Assembly (NCBI GenBank): GCA_039794085.1
Contig: JBDIWC010000093.1
Span: forward strand, 1-10,033
Length of the DNA: 10,033 nucleotides
Reading direction: 5' to 3'
Source: Gemmatimonadales bacterium
Lineage (GTDB): Bacteria > Gemmatimonadota > Gemmatimonadetes > Gemmatimonadales > GWC2-71-9
Both the position numbers and the translations under genes were made by a program. Shown one piece after another: positions 2,023 through 8,755 of this stretch. The notes below the pieces were generated by a model. It searched no databases, was not told where the DNA came from, and was given only the letters and a program-made list of their open reading frames with translations. The stretch's first letter is position 1. Each line of letters begins with the position of its first letter.

Positions 2023-4173
2023 TCAGGGATCCACCGTCATCAGGGTCATCATGCCGGCGGAGAGGTGTTCGGCGATATGACAGTGTACCATCCAGCGCCC
2101 CGGATTGGAAAGCTCCAGGAGCACCAGGGCGGTGGATCCCGCGGGGAGAAGCAGGGTGTCCTTCCAGACCAGATTGGGCACCGGCTCCCCGTTCCGGGCG
2201 AGCACCAGCACCCGCTGTCCATGAAAATGCACCGGGTGCGCCATGGCGTGGAGGGTGTTCCGGTCGTTCACGAGCTGGATGGCGACGGTGCTCCCGACCC
2301 GGAAGCGCCAGTTGATGTCCATGTTCTCCCGGCCGGTGGCCCGGTCGCGGAGGATCCATTCGACCTGGTCCGAGGTGGGGAGCCAATCCATCATCGGCAT
2401 GGTGCTGTTCCACTCCACCGCGGGGAACCAGGGCAGGTCGAGCTGGAGCGCCTCGGTCAGCGCAGGGGGGAGGTCGCGCGTGCGGAGGGTCAGGACGAGT
2501 TCGTGGTCGGGAGGGAGCAGTCTGCGATCCCGGTACCGGTTCACCTCGCGGGTCAGGTCCCCGTCGTGCCGGAGCCGGCTGAAATCCGCGGTGAGGCTTG
2601 GAGTAACGAGCGTGGTCCGCACCTCCACAGTGCCGAGAGTGTCGACCTCGCTGAGGAACGCTCCGACCACATGGTCGATCCCCTGGACCCGGTTGGTGAT
2701 CGCGTGCCGCCCCGGCTCGGTGAACTGGACCTCGACGATGTATCGCTGGGCCGGGGCGATCACCACGCTCTCCGCCCACGCTTCCCTCTCGAACCGGCCG
2801 AGATCGGCTCCGACCACCTTCACCCGCGCGGAGCCGAAGCCGAGATTGAAGGTGCGGGTGTTGGAGACGTTGGTGAGGAAGAAGCGCACGACCTCCGCGC
2901 GCTCCACCGACAGGGAGTAGTCGGGGTCGCCATTGACCAGCAGCACGTTGCCGAACCGCCCCATGAGGGCGTGGGTGGTGGCGTCCGCACCCCAGGGTAT
3001 CGGACCCGTCTCGCCGAGGAGGAGATCGTCGAGCATGAGGACCTCCTCCCGGTGCACCGGGGAGTACCAGGCGGGTGACGCGGGGTCCACCAGCATGTTG
3101 CCGTAGAGACCGAGATCCTGCTGGATCTCCTCGCGCACATGCGGGTGATACCAGTAGATCCCGGCATCGGGGAAGTGGACCCGGTACCGGAAGGAACCGC
3201 CTGGAGGAACCGGCGCCTGGGTGACACCGGGAACGCCGTCGAACCGGTTGTCGAGCCGGAGCCCGTGCCAGTGGATGGTGCTGCTGTCTCCAATCGCGTT
3301 CTGGAAGTGGACGGTGATGGTGGCGCCCTGGGGCACCCGAAGGAGAGGCCCAGGATACTGGCCGTTGTAGCCATACATGAGGACGGTCCGGTCCTGGAAG
3401 GTCCGGCGCACGAGGCCAGCCACGAGAACAAGCGAGTCGCCATCCGCCAGGGTGAGGAGTTCGCGAGGCCGGGACTCGGCGATGGCTGCGGTGTCACTTG
3501 CGGTAGGCAGGAAGGGAGTGGCACCCGGAGTGAGGCCCGCGATGCCCGGCATGGGGCTCATCCCGGGTCGCATGGGGGGCATCGGCCAGGGGGAGTGGTC
3601 GCCGTGGCGATCGGACAAGGAACCCTCCCCTTCGGTGAGCACCGGCAGGAGATGCCGCTCCATCCGGATGCTCGGCGACGTCCCTCTCAAAACCAAGCGT
3701 CCTTGGCGGGTGACAGTGGCGGGGTCGGACTCGGCGGACACCAGGATGAGGAACTTGGTTAGCGAGACCTCGCCGAGTTCGGTGACCCCGTTGGTGACCT
3801 CGCCGAGACGCACCATCGGATCGAACTGCGGAGTGGTGGCCCATGCCACGTAGGCTCTCGAGCCATCGAGGAGCGCGGGATCGGGGAGACCGGTGATGGT
3901 GGCCACCAGCTGGTGCCGGTGGTGACCGTCGCGGGTGACGGCGAGGTCGAACGGTGTCTCGGCCTGCCGGAGTTCGACCAGGCCGGAGGCGTCCGGAAGG
4001 TCGGGTCGTGGCACCAGTGGGATGCACCAGAGGTCGGGGGCGGGATGACCGATGGTGGTGTCGGGACGGCAGAGGGAGCCTCCCTGTGCCGACGGAGATG
4101 GCACGGACGCGCCGGTGGCGACCAGGGTGGCGAGGATGACGGCGCCGAGTGGGAGCGAAGGGGCAAGGGGCAT
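2023..4173 (-). CDS. Multicopper oxidase (laccase/CueO/CopA-like, 3 cupredoxin domains) with N-terminal extension
   Basis: All four copper-binding motifs are present: HWHG, WYHPH, HPVHFHG and HCHIAEHLSAGMM (Met axial ligand). Hydrophobic signal peptide and a His/Met/Pro-rich linker precede the core. Confidence 0.95.
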   Translation of the reverse strand: MPLAPSLPLGAVILATLVATGASVPSPSAQGGSLCRPDTTIGHPAPDLWCIPLVPRPDLPDASGLVELRQAETPFDLAVTRDGHHRHQLVATITGLPDPALLDGSRAYVAWATTPQFDPMVRLGEVTNGVTELGEVSLTKFLILVSAESDPATVTRQGRLVLRGTSPSIRMERHLLPVLTEGEGSLSDRHGDHSPWPMPPMRPGMSPMPGIAGLTPGATPFLPTASDTAAIAESRPRELLTLADGDSLVLVAGLVRRTFQDRTVLMYGYNGQYPGPLLRVPQGATITVHFQNAIGDSSTIHWHGLRLDNRFDGVPGVTQAPVPPGGSFRYRVHFPDAGIYWYHPHVREEIQQDLGLYGNMLVDPASPAWYSPVHREEVLMLDDLLLGETGPIPWGADATTHALMGRFGNVLLVNGDPDYSLSVERAEVVRFFLTNVSNTRTFNLGFGSARVKVVGADLGRFEREAWAESVVIAPAQRYIVEVQFTEPGRHAITNRVQGIDHVVGAFLSEVDTLGTVEVRTTLVTPSLTADFSRLRHDGDLTREVNRYRDRRLLPPDHELVLTLRTRDLPPALTEALQLDLPWFPAVEWNSTMPMMDWLPTSDQVEWILRDRATGRENMDINWRFRVGSTVAIQLVNDRNTLHAMAHPVHFHGQRVLVLARNGEPVPNLVWKDTLLLPAGSTALVLLELSNPGRWMVHCHIAEHLSAGMMTLMTVDP

Positions 4174-4256
4174 CGGACCGTGGCTGAGTGAGGGTCGAAG
4201 GGGCCGCCCGGGGATGCCTCGAAGATATCACCGAGTGTGACGATCCGTGCGTTCGA

Positions 4257-4304
4257 AGAGGAGACGCCCTTGCCTGCCGGAGGGGGAGGTGTCGACACTC
4301 TTCC
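4257..4304 (+). repeat. 48-bp direct repeat, copy 1
   Basis: agaggagacgcccttgcctgccggagggggaggtgtcgacactcttcc; 46/48 identical to 7651-7698. Confidence 0.95.
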
Positions 4305-4659
4305 GAGAGCCGGAGTCGGTGCGCGCGGCTATCCGGAAGCGGCTGCGGGAGCTGGTCCGTCGTCGTTATTGATTGCGTGACGCCAGCCTCCGGCGGAAGT
4401 CCATCGCCATCATCGAGTCATCATGGGGTGTGGGGATGTTCATCGGTGACTAGTTCGGAGAATACAAGGGGAGAAGGCAGAGGCGTCTATTCCGGTGTGG
4501 GGGACCGGAATGGTTGGGGTTGAGTGACATGGTGCAACCCGGCTAAAGGCCGAGCCGGCACGGACAACACTGATATCGGTCAGTGGCACTCACTCGTGCT
4601 GGCTGACTTGTCAGTTGTCTGACGTTTGTCCCTTCTAGTCAGGGAGAGCGGAAAGACCC

Positions 4660-4688
4660 TTGACGACTTCCCTCGCATGCGCTAGATT
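4660..4688 (+). promoter_or_regulatory. Putative sigma70 promoter for the peptide cassette
   Basis: TTGACG (4660-4665), 17-nt spacer, TAGATT (4683-4688), upstream of four co-oriented genes. Confidence 0.6.
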
Positions 4689-4692
4689 GTTT

Positions 4693-4791
4693 GCGGTAGT
4701 GGTCTCCTCGCGGTAGTGGTCTCCTCGCGGTAGTGGTCTCCTCGCGGTAGTGGTCTCCTCGCGGTAGTGGTCTCCTCGCGGTAGTGGTCTC
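4693..4791. repeat. Perfect 17-bp tandem repeat (GCGGTAGTGGTCTCCTC) x5 plus a 14-bp partial unit
   Basis: Read directly; units start at 4693, 4710, 4727, 4744, 4761 and 4778, with no spacers. Confidence 0.97.
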
Positions 4792-4847
4792 GGCCGTGGG
4801 ACCCCCTTGAGTGGCGCGATCGAGCCCGCCATTGGAACGGAGGCATT

Positions 4848-5321
4848 GTGCCTGCTCACAAGTTTTGGTTGACAGTTGCAAGTACCCTTGTCCCCGCCCT
4901 GACAGGCTGTGTCCAGGACATTCCGCCCATCCTCCATCAGGTACTGGAGGATGGGCGTGTTGTCGGTGACGTCATTCCAGCGCGCGACACGGTCGTACTC
5001 CTTCTCTACGCCCCTTCGGATTGCCTGGTCTGTGGAAGCCCCGTGTCAGAGTGGAGGGATTGGGCGAGCATCTCTCCTGACACAAGAGGGTGGATGTTGG
5101 TTGTGTCCCGCAACCCCTCGTCGATTGAGTACCGGCATCTTGCCGCCCTGCGCTTGGCACCGCTGAACATTCTTGATCGCGACATCGGGAACGTCCCGAC
5201 GCCACGGGTTTATTGGATTGTCGACAAGGCAGTCGCCGATTCCGCGGTAGGGAGGGAACAGATACCCTCGTTCTATAACCAGGTCGCCTCATGGTCGCGA
5301 CGACCCAAGCAAGTCGAGTAA
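4848..5321 (+). CDS. Thioredoxin-like (CxxC) putative lipoprotein
   Basis: GGAGG RBS before the GTG start. Lipobox-like LTGC at residues 18-21. Hydrophobic strand followed by CxxC (VVLLLYAPSDCLVC), and a later VPTPRVYWIV segment resembling the cis-Pro loop of thioredoxin folds. Confidence 0.7.
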   Translation: MPAHKFWLTVASTLVPALTGCVQDIPPILHQVLEDGRVVGDVIPARDTVVLLLYAPSDCLVCGSPVSEWRDWASISPDTRGWMLVVSRNPSSIEYRHLAALRLAPLNILDRDIGNVPTPRVYWIVDKAVADSAVGREQIPSFYNQVASWSRRPKQVE

Positions 5322-5416
5322 TTCTAAAGTCGAGCAAGGGCAGGCAGAGGGTCGCGGGGCAATCGGGGTTGGGAAGGCGAAGATTGTCAACAATGTCTCT
5401 GTCAAGGAGGTAGCAT

Positions 5417-5605
5417 ATGCGTGCGATTGCGGTGTCGCTGGTGCGACTGGGGATGGTGGCGGTGGCGTTTCTGCTGGTCACCCCGGGGGTGAGCAACGCG
5501 CAGGGTTGCCTCCTGTGCAAGCTTCACGCGGACGGCACGTGCGCTATTCCGGCCCTGGAGTACCACTGCGGGTGCTGCAAGAACGTGGGAGAACTCGAGC
5601 CCTGA
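5417..5605 (+). CDS. Secreted Cys-rich mini-peptide 1 (28-aa signal + 34-aa, 6-Cys mature peptide)
   Basis: AAGGAGG RBS at 5404-5410. Sec-type signal ending SNA|Q. Mature sequence QGCLLCKLHADGTCAIPALEYHCGCCKNVGELEP. Reading frame, length and stop are conserved in the paralog. Confidence 0.88.
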   Translation: MRAIAVSLVRLGMVAVAFLLVTPGVSNAQGCLLCKLHADGTCAIPALEYHCGCCKNVGELEP

Positions 5606-5652
5606 GGCTTCATCCGTGAGTCAGGATGTCAGAATCATCTGGCCGGGTGCGA

Positions 5653-5747
5653 AGGGTGTATTCGATTGTTGTGAAGGCGGTCGCTGATGCCGCCACTTCG
5701 CAGCAGGATCGTGTCATGGTCGCGATGAGTCGAAGTTAGTCGAGTAA
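5653..5747 (+). pseudogene. Decayed duplicate of the 3' end of the thioredoxin-like gene
   Basis: From 5653 it translates as RVYSIVVKAVADAA, versus RVYWIVDKAVADSA at 5205. Downstream tcatggtcgcga...gtcgagtaa matches 5289-5321, with a deletion and frameshift in between. Confidence 0.75.
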
Positions 5748-5845
5748 GAGTGCTGCGGTCGACTAACACAAGAGGGAAGGTCGCGGGGTGATCGGAGCGG
5801 GGAAGGTGAAGGTTGTCAACAATGTCTTTCTCAAGGAGGTAGCGT

Positions 5846-6034
5846 ATGCGTGCGATTGTGATGTCGCTGGTGCGACTGGGACTGGTGGCGGTGGCCTTCC
5901 TGCTGGTCACCCCGGGGGCGAGCAACGCGCAGGGTTGCGGCCTGTGCAAGAGGCACGCGGATGGGACGTGCAGTCTCCCGACCATCGACAACGACTGCGG
6001 GTGCTGCAAGTTTGTGGAGGAACTCGAACCCTGA
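5846..6034 (+). CDS. Secreted Cys-rich mini-peptide 2 (paralog of peptide 1)
   Basis: AAGGAGG RBS at 5833-5839. Mature sequence QGCGLCKRHADGTCSLPTIDNDCGCCKFVEELEP. 47/62 aa identical to peptide 1, with all 6 Cys conserved. Confidence 0.88.
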   Translation: MRAIVMSLVRLGLVAVAFLLVTPGASNAQGCGLCKRHADGTCSLPTIDNDCGCCKFVEELEP

Positions 6035-6216
6035 TGCTCGTGTCGTGACCTACGATGCCGGTCTCTTCTGGTAGGCATCGGGGGATACACTCGACGTAGT
6101 TGGTGCAGTAAGGTCGTATCGTGCCCAGCTCGGTGATTGCCCCGCGGCCCCACTCGCTTGGTGCGATGAACACTCCGATGGTAACCGGATGAAAACCGAC
6201 TTCGAGGAGATGCGAG

Positions 6217-7401
6217 ATGAGACTTGTTGCCGAGTGGGTTCTTTGGGCAATAGTCCGAGGGGGGAGCCTTGGCCTGATGGTCGCCGGCTGCGCTGGCACA
6301 GACCAGCCGAGCGCGGCCTTCCGATCAGTTGGGCGAGTGTCGGGAAGCGGCCCTCTGCTGCATCTCATCGATAGCGTATCCCTTGAAGAGAATGACACGC
6401 TGTACCTCGGATCTCCCGGGACGAGCTTTGCCGTCGCCGAAGATGGAATGATCTACGTTCCGGACATGTCGCGCGACGAGGTCGTGCGCTACAGTCCTGA
6501 TGGTGGCATTGATGGCATTGTCGGGCGTAAGGGATCGGGCCCGGGGGAGTTGCGTGGGGTGGGTGTGGCGATTGACGTTAAGGACTCGATACTCTTGGTG
6601 CGAGGATATCAAAACTACCGGATAAGCACCTTCAGGGCGAAAACGGGTGAGTACATCGGTGGGGTACGCTATGAGGGATACCTCTCATCCCTCAGTGTTG
6701 ATGGAACGGTGGCGTGGTATGCCACGATGACCCCTGGTAGCGGTAAGGTATTCGGGTCGTTCGACGCCGTGAGCCCGGAGGAAGCCGCCGACCGGCCGGT
6801 TCTCAGTGGCCGGTTGCTCGACATTCCAATCGAGTACCGTGACCTTCCGGGACTGGACATTATGAACAACGGGCACCTCGTGGTCCGGGGTGATACCATG
6901 ATTGCGGGGTTTGGGGCACTCGATTACCTGGTCATTGCCACACCCAGCGGCACTGCAATCGACACCTTGGTTCTCCCGGCTCGGCAGCGCCGGGGAGCAC
7001 CGTCAGCCGTTCTAGCCAAAGTGTACCGACCGAGGAGCGGGCCACCTTCAGTCACATTCAGCGCGGTTTCCAATTTTGCCGGCATCTGGGCCCTTCGGGA
7101 TGGAAGGATACTTGTGTATCATCGCGACTTGGAGGTATCCGGACCAGAACGGAGCGCTCCTGTCACAGGAAAGGCTTACATCAGTATCCTGTCACCGGAT
7201 CTCCGGATGGCATGTCTCGATGGCGAGCTGCCGTATCCGGAAGCGGCATATCCACGAATCGACGTGCAGAACGACACCATATATGCTCTGGACCAGATGG
7301 TGCAACCCGCTCCGGCCACCGGAACCCGAACCGTGGTTCGGAAGTTTGTGGTTGATGATGGATCGTGCGACTGGTTCCCGGTTCGCCGTCCAGGTCCCTG
7401 A
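6217..7401 (+). CDS. 6-bladed beta-propeller (NHL/TolB-like) putative lipoprotein
   Basis: GAGGAG RBS. Lipobox-like VAGC at residues 22-25. The segment FAVAEDGMIYVPD...VVRYSPDG...VGRKGSGPGEL is characteristic of NHL-like 6-bladed propellers; repeated beta-strand blades follow. Confidence 0.85.
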   Translation: MRLVAEWVLWAIVRGGSLGLMVAGCAGTDQPSAAFRSVGRVSGSGPLLHLIDSVSLEENDTLYLGSPGTSFAVAEDGMIYVPDMSRDEVVRYSPDGGIDGIVGRKGSGPGELRGVGVAIDVKDSILLVRGYQNYRISTFRAKTGEYIGGVRYEGYLSSLSVDGTVAWYATMTPGSGKVFGSFDAVSPEEAADRPVLSGRLLDIPIEYRDLPGLDIMNNGHLVVRGDTMIAGFGALDYLVIATPSGTAIDTLVLPARQRRGAPSAVLAKVYRPRSGPPSVTFSAVSNFAGIWALRDGRILVYHRDLEVSGPERSAPVTGKAYISILSPDLRMACLDGELPYPEAAYPRIDVQNDTIYALDQMVQPAPATGTRTVVRKFVVDDGSCDWFPVRRPGP

Positions 7402-7650
7402 CGACCGGGGATACCGAGTGTCGGTGAGTGCGCTTATGGCGGGTCAGGGGATGATTAACGCATAGTCGGGGCCATTGTCCGTCGCCGTCTTCGTCACCTC
7501 CTCCCGCACCCTGTACTTCGGGCCACGACATCGTCGCCAGTATGATCCGAGGTGGGATCACCGACGCCGCCTATCCGGCGAACCCTGGAGCCGCCAGCGC
7601 AAGGAGACCAGTTTCGGCAAGCCGGGGTGGGCTCCCCCATTGCCGGCGGG

Positions 7651-7698
7651 AGAGGAGACGCCCTTGCCTGCCGGAGGGGGAGGTGCCGATACTCTTCC
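7651..7698 (+). repeat. 48-bp direct repeat, copy 2 (contains promoter-like TTGCCT-N18-GATACT)
   Basis: agaggagacgcccttgcctgccggagggggaggtgccgatactcttcc; 2 mismatches to copy 1; ends 35 nt before the ATG at 7734. Confidence 0.95.
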
Positions 7699-7733
7699 CG
7701 GGACAAGGCGCCCTTTCTCCTTCCGAGTCGATC

Positions 7734-8357: not shown

Positions 8358-8483
8358 CCGGGGTATAGACTCTGTCCTATGTCCCAATCCGGCCGAGCCG
8401 GAACCAAAATGGCTCACAACCCCTGGGTCACAGTTCCGCTGGACTGCCCCCCTCGTGAACAACCCTTGGGCCAATCTGCCGAT

Positions 8484-8560
8484 GTGTACGGGCCGTTCGT
8501 GAACGGCCCCTGGGTACGAACTGCCGGCGTGTACGGGCCGTTCGCGAACGGCCCGTACAC
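8484..8560. repeat. Two tandem REP-like palindromes
   Basis: Perfect 32-bp palindrome gtgtacgggccgttcgcgaacggcccgtacac (8529-8560) and an imperfect copy gtgtacgggccgttcgtgaacggccc (8484-8509), lying between convergent genes. Confidence 0.85.
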
Positions 8561-8664
8561 TGTTCTCCCTGTCACCCGCGGCGGCCCATGGGCCGCCGGT
8601 GTTGGTTTCCGGCCGTCGCCAAGAACATTGTTGTCGTTTTGTGTTCGATTTCGTCCGTAAGGGA

Positions 8665-8755
8665 CTATGTCCTACGTCCTATGTCCTATGTCCTACGTCC
8701 TATGTCCTATGTCCTATGTCCTATGTCCTATGTCCTATGTCCTATGTCCTACGCC
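8665..8755. repeat. Heptamer tandem repeat (CTAYGTC) x12 plus one degenerate unit
   Basis: ctatgtc/ctacgtc units from 8665 to 8748, then ctacgcc. It overlaps the stop codon of the ERCC4 gene. Confidence 0.97.

Follow-up and report, generated by a model that had tools for sequence, protein, structure and literature searches.

What do four adjacent genes achieve together when all are read in the same direction, all carry export signals, and the products are a CxxC lipoprotein, two six-cysteine peptides and a beta-propeller lipoprotein? This question is raised by a complete 10,033-base contig (JBDIWC010000093.1, C93 in our numbering, here called the window) of a hot-spring Gemmatimonadales bacterium with 67% guanine plus cytosine (GC), a host outside the Bacteroidota whose metagenome-assembled genome comprises 4.16 Mb at 66.8% GC. 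An earlier note on this DNA had proposed a dedicated and undescribed module, and the analysis reported here indicates that the cassette is a real, conserved and uncharacterised one. Its peptides and CxxC protein belong to no named family, and the claim that it is undescribed also stood, since no curated library names these proteins and no description of such a cassette was found in the literature searched. As to what it does, we see about an even chance that it is an envelope cassette in which the six-cysteine peptides are folded by a thioredoxin-like lipoprotein and bound by the propeller. The four genes of the window are:

4848-5321, + strand: predicted lipoprotein of 157 residues, probably thioredoxin-like, with the motif C59LVC62; unnamed family
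5417-5605, + strand: precursor of six-cysteine peptide 1, 62 residues, with a predicted signal at residues 1-28 and a mature part of 34 residues
5846-6034, + strand: precursor of six-cysteine peptide 2, 62 residues, a tandem duplicate of peptide 1
6217-7401, + strand: lipoprotein of 394 residues, modelled as a six-bladed NHL-type beta-propeller

Strong ribosome-binding sites and export signals were found on all four genes in the open-reading-frame (ORF) analysis of the window, and the layout described in the earlier note, a single promoter-like site followed by four co-oriented genes for exported products, was present exactly as claimed. That note had further claimed that classical enzymes for ribosomally synthesized and post-translationally modified peptides (RiPPs) are absent, and this was borne out by Pfam and NCBIfam scans, in which no radical S-adenosylmethionine (rSAM) enzyme, LanM, YcaO, MNIO or peptidase-type ATP-binding cassette (ABC) exporter was detected in the window. 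With neither a modifying enzyme nor an exporter to flag them, these peptides are overlooked by standard genome miners.

Linkage of the three gene types across Gemmatimonadota

From the CxxC side, linkage was surveyed with a family profile run against 401 Gemmatimonadota genomes, which placed the family in 36 genomes; these represent 19 of 147 genera and come from four families that all belong to the window's class. Thirty-four loci from other genera were inspected: a propeller of the window's family adjoins the CxxC gene in 32, with a weak propeller match in the other two, and an ORF for a peptide with a cysteine motif near its C-terminus adjoins it in 29. Twenty-four of these 29 ORFs passed a filter for a signal-like start and at least three cysteines in the last 45 residues (background of 0.074 matches per kb, both strands), and the other five were retrieved by a looser search for the cysteine pattern. 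The genes occur in the orders CxxC-peptide-propeller, peptide-propeller-CxxC and peptide-CxxC-propeller, and the peptide gene abuts the propeller frame or overlaps it by a few bases in several relatives (for example, in loci L045, L046, L050, L052, and L060), an arrangement that suggests co-production. The 34 flanking ORFs of the related loci fall into unrelated Pfam families and include no transporter, peptidase or radical-SAM enzyme. The unit therefore consists of just the three gene types.

From the propeller side, the family was found to be expanded in the window's own genus (17, 18, and 6 matches in three genomes), where the CxxC gene adjoins 12 of 20 propeller loci, several of the other eight being cut by contig ends, and where short signal-bearing cysteine-rich ORFs lie beside many of the loci. 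For the host genome as a whole, a candidate peptide was defined by a signal-like start, at least four cysteines and a position on the same strand within 1 kb. Such a neighbour was present for 22 of 66 propeller-profile ORFs, compared to a mean of 2.0 (standard deviation 1.4, maximum 8) in 200 random placements, an 11-fold enrichment that involves 26 peptides. The linkage of CxxC and propeller homologs to nearby cysteine-rich peptides, by which the earlier note had asked to be judged, thus holds from both sides, and with it the proposal of a dedicated module of CxxC, propeller and short exported cysteine-rich peptide genes that is conserved across a Gemmatimonadota class.

A further line of evidence comes from DsbA. 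The host genome has five DsbA-family loci, four of them directly beside propeller ORFs and three of those four also accompanied by a cysteine-rich peptide gene. These sister cassettes, with a membrane-anchored DsbA carrying CPFC or CPGC, are located at:

C79, 8286-10529
C92, 6670-8751
C108, 202-3261
C3, 11524-15580

In the sister cassettes, the DsbA-family gene, whose product is unrelated to the thioredoxin-like family and belongs to one known for disulfide oxidases, stands in the place of the thioredoxin-like gene. No other observation speaks as strongly, in our view, for thiol-disulfide chemistry as a part of the module, and the exchange of the oxidoreductase while peptide and propeller remain also argues that these last two are its constant core. 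The fifth DsbA-family gene adjoins a VKOR gene, and this pair is presumably a general oxidase.

The encoded proteins and their locus

The two peptides of the window are 76% identical, each with AGGAGG 7 nucleotides upstream of its gene, and both precursors have a Sec-type signal ending in SNA, followed by QG, and a 34-residue mature part with six cysteines in the pattern C-x2-C-x7-C-x8-C-x-C-C. A 300-nucleotide duplication (5347-5646 versus 5776-6075, 81% identical) underlies the two genes, and a metagenome contig from run X4 joins position 5406 to 5835, omitting 428 bases and giving a one-peptide form of the locus. The crude ratio of nonsynonymous to synonymous substitution rates (dN/dS) between the copies is ~ 0.5 in signal and mature parts alike, with no positive selection shown. 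Both peptides end in ELEP, lack tryptophan and have a mature C-terminus that is acidic, not cationic. No Pfam or NCBIfam family was matched by either one, and a word-based search of 5.8 billion protein clusters returned only the window peptides themselves and one 84%-identical relative. A near-identical relative of the host (G001, also filed as a Gemmatimonadales bacterium) has peptide 1 at 85%, peptide 2 at 100% and the propeller at 99.7% identity; its peptide 1 (L031 4002-4190) bears the C-terminal residues of peptide 2, which resembles gene conversion between the copies.

When 38 module peptides were compared, the commonest framework was C-x3-C followed, after 3-11 residues, by C-x-C or CC near the C-terminus, and the number of cysteines was even in 37 of the 38; the six-cysteine pattern of the window is a local variant of this peptide class. 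Signal peptides are conserved among the module peptides and mature parts are hypervariable. Tryptophan or aromatic residues directly precede the first cysteine in many of them, many of the relatives' peptides end in glycine, and many predicted mature peptides start with glutamine. The tails after the last cysteine recur: a PPIIVEG-like hydrophobic tail is found in many relatives from other genera, and 10 of the 26 propeller-adjacent candidate peptides of the host genome have an [LI]EP C-terminus despite differing cysteine frameworks. Both kinds of tail could be docking or processing signals. Examples of the [LI]EP-ending peptides are:

C27, 53902-54515
C71, 2108-2362
C103, 1193-1483
C104, 1181-1441
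C109, 582-785
C53, 10431-10706

The peptide gene is split in three paralogous modules, L015 (host C22, about 44100-44400), L025 (G001 C143) and L020 (G002 C133), with the signal and the cysteine-rich part in different frames or with a start that is unclear at an A-run, and L025 has a broken propeller as well. Decay of the copies, errors of assembly or slippage at these sites may each account for the split genes.

The CxxC gene has a GTG start 5 nucleotides after GGAGG, and its product has the lipobox LTG-C21, the lipobox cysteine being kept in at least 90% of 80 family members, so that lipidation is predicted for the family. No Pfam family was matched at E ≤ 1 and no NCBIfam family at all, and neither the protein nor its 11 aligned relatives reached the cut-off of the curated thioredoxin-type models Thioredoxin_8, Redoxin, and AhpC-TSA. 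The nearest Pfam match was AhpC-TSA at E 0.052 in one of 12 relatives, and 55 further family representatives had no Pfam match at E ≤ 0.01. We nevertheless consider the protein thioredoxin-like with moderate confidence, because the order of elements in the predicted structure is that of a thioredoxin fold (CxxC after the strand at 48-53 and before the helix at 65-75), because the top Foldseek matches, though weak, are all thioredoxin-fold proteins (PilB N-domain, CcmG, Etrx1, StoA, and DsbE), and because an 80-member profile aligned by hhalign to the host's own Redoxin proteins (E 2.7e-4) has the CxxC in register. In the 80-member alignment, the motif is C-[FL]-[STA]-C, with the second cysteine in 80 of 80, the first in 69 and P119 in 66; this conserved proline stands where the cis-proline of the loop would be expected. 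The family comprises 579 representatives at E ≤ 0.001 in a library of 1.84 billion proteins, and the best 150 of these are 112-279 residues long and therefore stand-alone, without a propeller fusion. Matches in the ESM Atlas were to clusters without a name, among which one has 14% of its members annotated with Redoxin; a word-based homolog search with the family alignment gave three nameless proteins only, and the family profile found nothing significant among PDB sequences (thioredoxin at E 0.47).

The propeller was modelled with AlphaFold2 from an alignment of 19 paralogs, at a mean predicted local distance difference test score (pLDDT) of 79.9 and a predicted template modelling score (pTM) of 0.80. 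In VIA-align, the model matched the NHL domain of Brat (5ex7_A) with Z 24.1 and a root-mean-square deviation of 2.9 over 259 residues, and many other NHL domains with Z 20-24, while the longest alignment, 314 residues, was to the Bacteroides vulgatus DUF4221 protein 3s9j (Z 20.8; Foldseek E 2.9e-10). As modelled, the 394-residue lipoprotein folds as a six-bladed NHL-type propeller. By sequence, it reaches no curated cut-off in Pfam or NCBIfam: PQQ_2 (E 0.0037), DUF5128 (E 0.16) and DUF1375 (E 0.33) were matched below cut-off in Pfam, and the score with the ScyF NHL model of NCBIfam was 31.8 bits, where 350 would be required. A search for related loci with the single window propeller returned the near-identical relative only. 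The lipobox is VAG-C25, and its cysteine, the predicted site of lipidation, is present in every one of 19 propellers; these 19 paralogs also have in common a GxGPGE motif and, towards the C-terminus, two cysteines that are nearly invariant (C333 and C384). Peptide-amidating lyase (PAL) matches the fold of the model less well (Z 18.0) and, together with the glycine-ending peptides of relatives, gives rise to the idea that the propeller could be such a lyase; the glutamine at the start of predicted mature peptides similarly gives rise to the idea that it could be a glutaminyl cyclase.

Upstream of the genes and around them, the following elements were located:

4660..4688, + strand: sigma-70-like promoter, TTGACG-17 nt-TAGATT, the sole such site in 4200-7700
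4693..4791, + strand: tandem array of the 17-nucleotide unit GCGGTAGTGGTCTCCTC, 5.8 copies, 100% matches, between the promoter and the first gene
4257..4304, + strand: left copy of a 48-nucleotide direct repeat that brackets the module
7651..7698, + strand: right copy of the 48-nucleotide direct repeat, 96% identical to the left

The one promoter-like site compares with 1.1 expected from shuffles and is by itself not above chance; it is kept in G001. Its weight comes not from the promoter scan but from the recurrence of the layout in a paralogous module on contig C35, where TTGACA-17-TAAATT is followed by a tandem array of the same 17-nucleotide unit, GGAGG, a GTG start and the CxxC gene. The proteins of the C35 module are only ~ 25% identical to those of the window, yet the 17-nucleotide unit is identical and in the same position. 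The C35 array has 3.7 copies (C35 24172-24237; on the minus strand in locus L013, about 4173-4238), the G001 ortholog has ~ 2.6, and in metagenome contigs the array has a depth ~ 7 times that of its flanks and also lies behind at least two other promoter-like sequences. The 5′ leader containing the array folds less stably than shuffles (z +1.8), giving no sign of a structured leader. The array could be an operator common to these loci or a switch that works through copy number.

The 48-nucleotide repeat is sharply bounded, has only two copies in the genome and encloses the whole 3.35-kb module, and GC between the copies is ~ 60%, compared to 66.8% for the genome. No integrase gene is present. 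The repeats and the GC shift could be the footprint of a cassette insertion. The remaining genes of the window encode a KilA-N protein, an amidohydrolase, a multicopper oxidase, an exported 271-residue ORF without assignment and an ERCC4 nuclease. The stretch is contained in 15 public runs, all DNA metagenomes, from hot-spring, biofilm and cave. Further downstream, a 45-nucleotide repeat with near-perfect palindromes (8453-8560) and a 7-nucleotide tandem repeat, CTATGTC, in 12.4 copies (8665-8751) were observed. ORF artefacts with the same repeat-encoded residues were seen in at least five occurrences on other contigs (C18 twice, C23, C29, and C85), and the 8453-8751 repeats are therefore a dispersed repeat element of the genome.

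Weighing the explanations

In the envelope cassette that we favour, the precursors would, as their sequences imply, be exported by Sec and their signals cleaved, probably between SNA and Q. At the membrane surface, the lipid-anchored thioredoxin-like protein likely forms or shuffles the disulfides of the peptide, three of which the CxxC protein would make from the six cysteines, and the peptide, once folded, likely becomes a stoichiometric partner bound to the NHL propeller lipoprotein, perhaps by way of the conserved peptide tail. The last two steps are proposed because of the gene linkage, the even cysteine counts, the replacement by DsbA and, in relatives, peptide and propeller genes that adjoin without a gap or overlap. 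Antagonism, signalling, recognition, and catalysis are candidates for what the peptide-propeller pair might serve.

A number of observations weigh against this reading. No peptide ORF was found in five of the 34 loci (G204, G282, G367, G173, and G023), start and signal peptide could not be assigned for six of the 29 peptide ORFs (the five loose matches and the G098 ORF), and 44 of the 66 propeller ORFs of the host have no candidate peptide inside 1 kb. In a different species of the genus, the gene for the closest ortholog of the window propeller (49% identity) lacks both a CxxC and a peptide neighbour. Modelling of the CxxC protein gave a poor result (pLDDT 59.7), its Foldseek matches reach at best E 6e-3 with template modelling (TM) scores of 0.38-0.43, and the hhalign probability for the family against Redoxin is only 41%. 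The first cysteine of the motif is absent in 11 of 80 members while the second is invariant, the reverse of classical thioredoxin-type enzymes, and this invariant cysteine aligns with the peroxidatic cysteine of peroxiredoxins, so that a chemistry other than classical disulfide formation may be at work. The real substrate of the CxxC protein could be the propeller's own cysteine pair, C333/C384, and the general DsbA-VKOR pair could oxidise the peptides anyway.

The simplest way to dismiss the module would be to hold that the short ORFs are not genes and that their adjacency is chance. GC-rich DNA does give many false ORFs, and the peptide filter returned 124 candidates genome-wide, most of them spurious-looking, but the strong ribosome-binding sites and canonical signal peptides, the conservation in G001, the recurrence in four families of the class and the enrichment next to propellers over random placement leave this view hardly credible. 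A peptide toxin with its immunity protein, in which the propeller would capture bacteriocin-like peptides to protect the producer and the CxxC protein would fold them, is unlikely but has more in its favour: the peptides are small, exported, cysteine-rich and hypervariable behind conserved signals, each peptide gene has a partner gene directly beside it, there are many diverged paralogous cassettes per genome, and copy number differs between strains. In two orthologous pairs, the mature peptide also diverges more than the propeller, with 29/36 versus 357/372 residues identical in one and 85% versus 99.7% identity in the other. This explanation is at odds with the flanks, where the 34 ORFs include no recurrent exporter, lysis gene or regulator dedicated to the module, with the acidic C-terminus of the window's mature peptides, and with the dN/dS between the copies, which gives no sign of diversifying selection.

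Two enzymatic explanations were also weighed, and to both we would give a low probability. The peptide might be a cross-linked small subunit on a propeller enzyme, like the light chain of methylamine dehydrogenase, with the CxxC protein in the role of MauD. The gene content resembles that of the mau cluster in outline, and the abutting peptide and propeller genes of several relatives and the tryptophan or aromatic residues just before the first cysteine are consistent with such a subunit, but the NHL propeller has six blades, not seven, the window peptides have no tryptophan and a mature form of only 34 residues, a catalytic subunit would not be expected to vary as much as the peptides do, and no MauE-like or MauG-like gene recurs among the 34 flanking ORFs. 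Just as improbable to us is a split version of the NHLRC2/SOQ1 redox pair that acts on other envelope proteins, with the peptides as regulators, as metal-binding accessories with reduced cysteines or as bystanders. It would account for the CxxC-propeller association being the most constant one (34 of 34 loci, two of them weak, versus 29 of 34 for peptides) and for a family cysteine pattern that is atypical for an oxidase, and in NHLRC2 itself a TlpA-like domain and a six-bladed NHL propeller are fused, with the cysteine motif turned towards the propeller (PMC6107167). It sits poorly with the pairing of propeller and peptide, which reaches well beyond the CxxC-containing modules, and with the sister cassettes, where DsbA replaces the oxidoreductase while peptide and propeller stay. 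The motif is not CC(I/V)NC, and none of the best 150 of the 579 family representatives is long enough for a fusion.

The envelope cassette can be extended to a bolder and more tentative proposal, possible but well short of probable, in which each hypervariable disulfide-knotted peptide has a private propeller receptor and a private oxidoreductase, from either the new thioredoxin-like family or DsbA. Dozens of such cassettes per genome, spread as small units, would then make up an inter-bacterial peptide-receptor code for recognition or antagonism. If the reading holds, the small secreted peptides of Gemmatimonadota form large and rapidly changing repertoires rich in disulfides, and the constant pairing with an NHL propeller provides a handle by which to find them. 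The same pairing yields a concrete hypothesis for a large class of functionally unassigned bacterial propeller lipoproteins.

Comparison with known systems

In the Bacteroidota, small secreted peptide genes lie beside propeller lipoproteins in NVEALA-type loci, a parallel that the earlier note had drawn for this cassette. At the level of fold it held, since the best-covering structural matches of the window propeller are Bacteroides DUF4221/DUF5128 propellers (3s9j BVU_1028 and 4raa BF0058), which are likewise exported and functionally unassigned. It did not hold by sequence: these proteins belong to another phylum, the window propeller scores 11.6 bits with PF17170 against a cut-off of 22.9 and falls outside their family, and PF14055 had no match when the two window peptides and 32 others, 34 in all, were scanned. 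The PF14055 search of the host genome also gave no match, and control genomes were equally without one, which makes that search uninformative.

Methylamine dehydrogenase clusters encode the MauB propeller, the cysteine-rich light chain MauA and the thioredoxin-like protein MauD, and the cassette would share with them, as an analogy, a trio in which a propeller is joined by a small exported protein rich in disulfides and by a thioredoxin-like protein dedicated to it. The heavy chain of that enzyme is seven-bladed, however, and its light chain has ~ 130 residues with tryptophan for the tryptophan tryptophylquinone (TTQ) cofactor, whereas the cassette combines a six-bladed NHL propeller with variable peptides, of 34 residues and without tryptophan in the window, and has no MauE or MauG among the 34 flanking ORFs. 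With blade number and peptide features both different, it is not a mau cluster.

The CxxC protein is closest to the TlpA/DsbE/ResA/CcmG proteins and the peroxiredoxins, which it resembles in the order of strands and helices, in a CxxC at the start of a helix, and in a proline at the cis-proline place; they are also its best fold matches, though weak ones, and its predicted lipid anchor is like that of Etrx1 of pneumococcus. It differs in matching no Pfam thioredoxin family, in having no tryptophan before the first cysteine and in keeping the second rather than the first cysteine invariant. Exported disulfide peptides with a dedicated oxidoreductase are, for their part, an already known kind of system. 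Pediocin-type bacteriocins and bacteroidetocins have operons with a dedicated thiol-disulfide accessory protein, and like these the cassette would encode a small exported disulfide peptide beside its own oxidoreductase. Its peptides have Sec signals instead of double-glycine leaders, no ABC exporter or peptidase accompanies them, and they have a constant partner in the propeller lipoprotein. Across the window and the 34 flanking ORFs, there is no modifying enzyme or peptidase-ABC exporter, which places the cassette outside RiPP and class II bacteriocin clusters.

The nearest known architecture is that of NHLRC2 and SOQ1, in which thioredoxin-like and NHL domains lie side by side on the non-cytoplasmic side of the membrane. 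The NHLRC2 crystal structure has the cysteine motif facing the binding face of the propeller, the function of the protein is unknown, and no conserved operon was reported for the bacterial homologs examined (PMC6107167). The cassette is not a member of this family, as its domains are in separate genes and the CC(I/V)NC motif is lacking; it has two separate lipoproteins with the motif C-[FL]-[STA]-C and, in addition, a gene for a cysteine-rich peptide. With this candidate peptide substrate encoded next door, a bacterial version would make the substrate question of NHLRC2 and SOQ1 testable.

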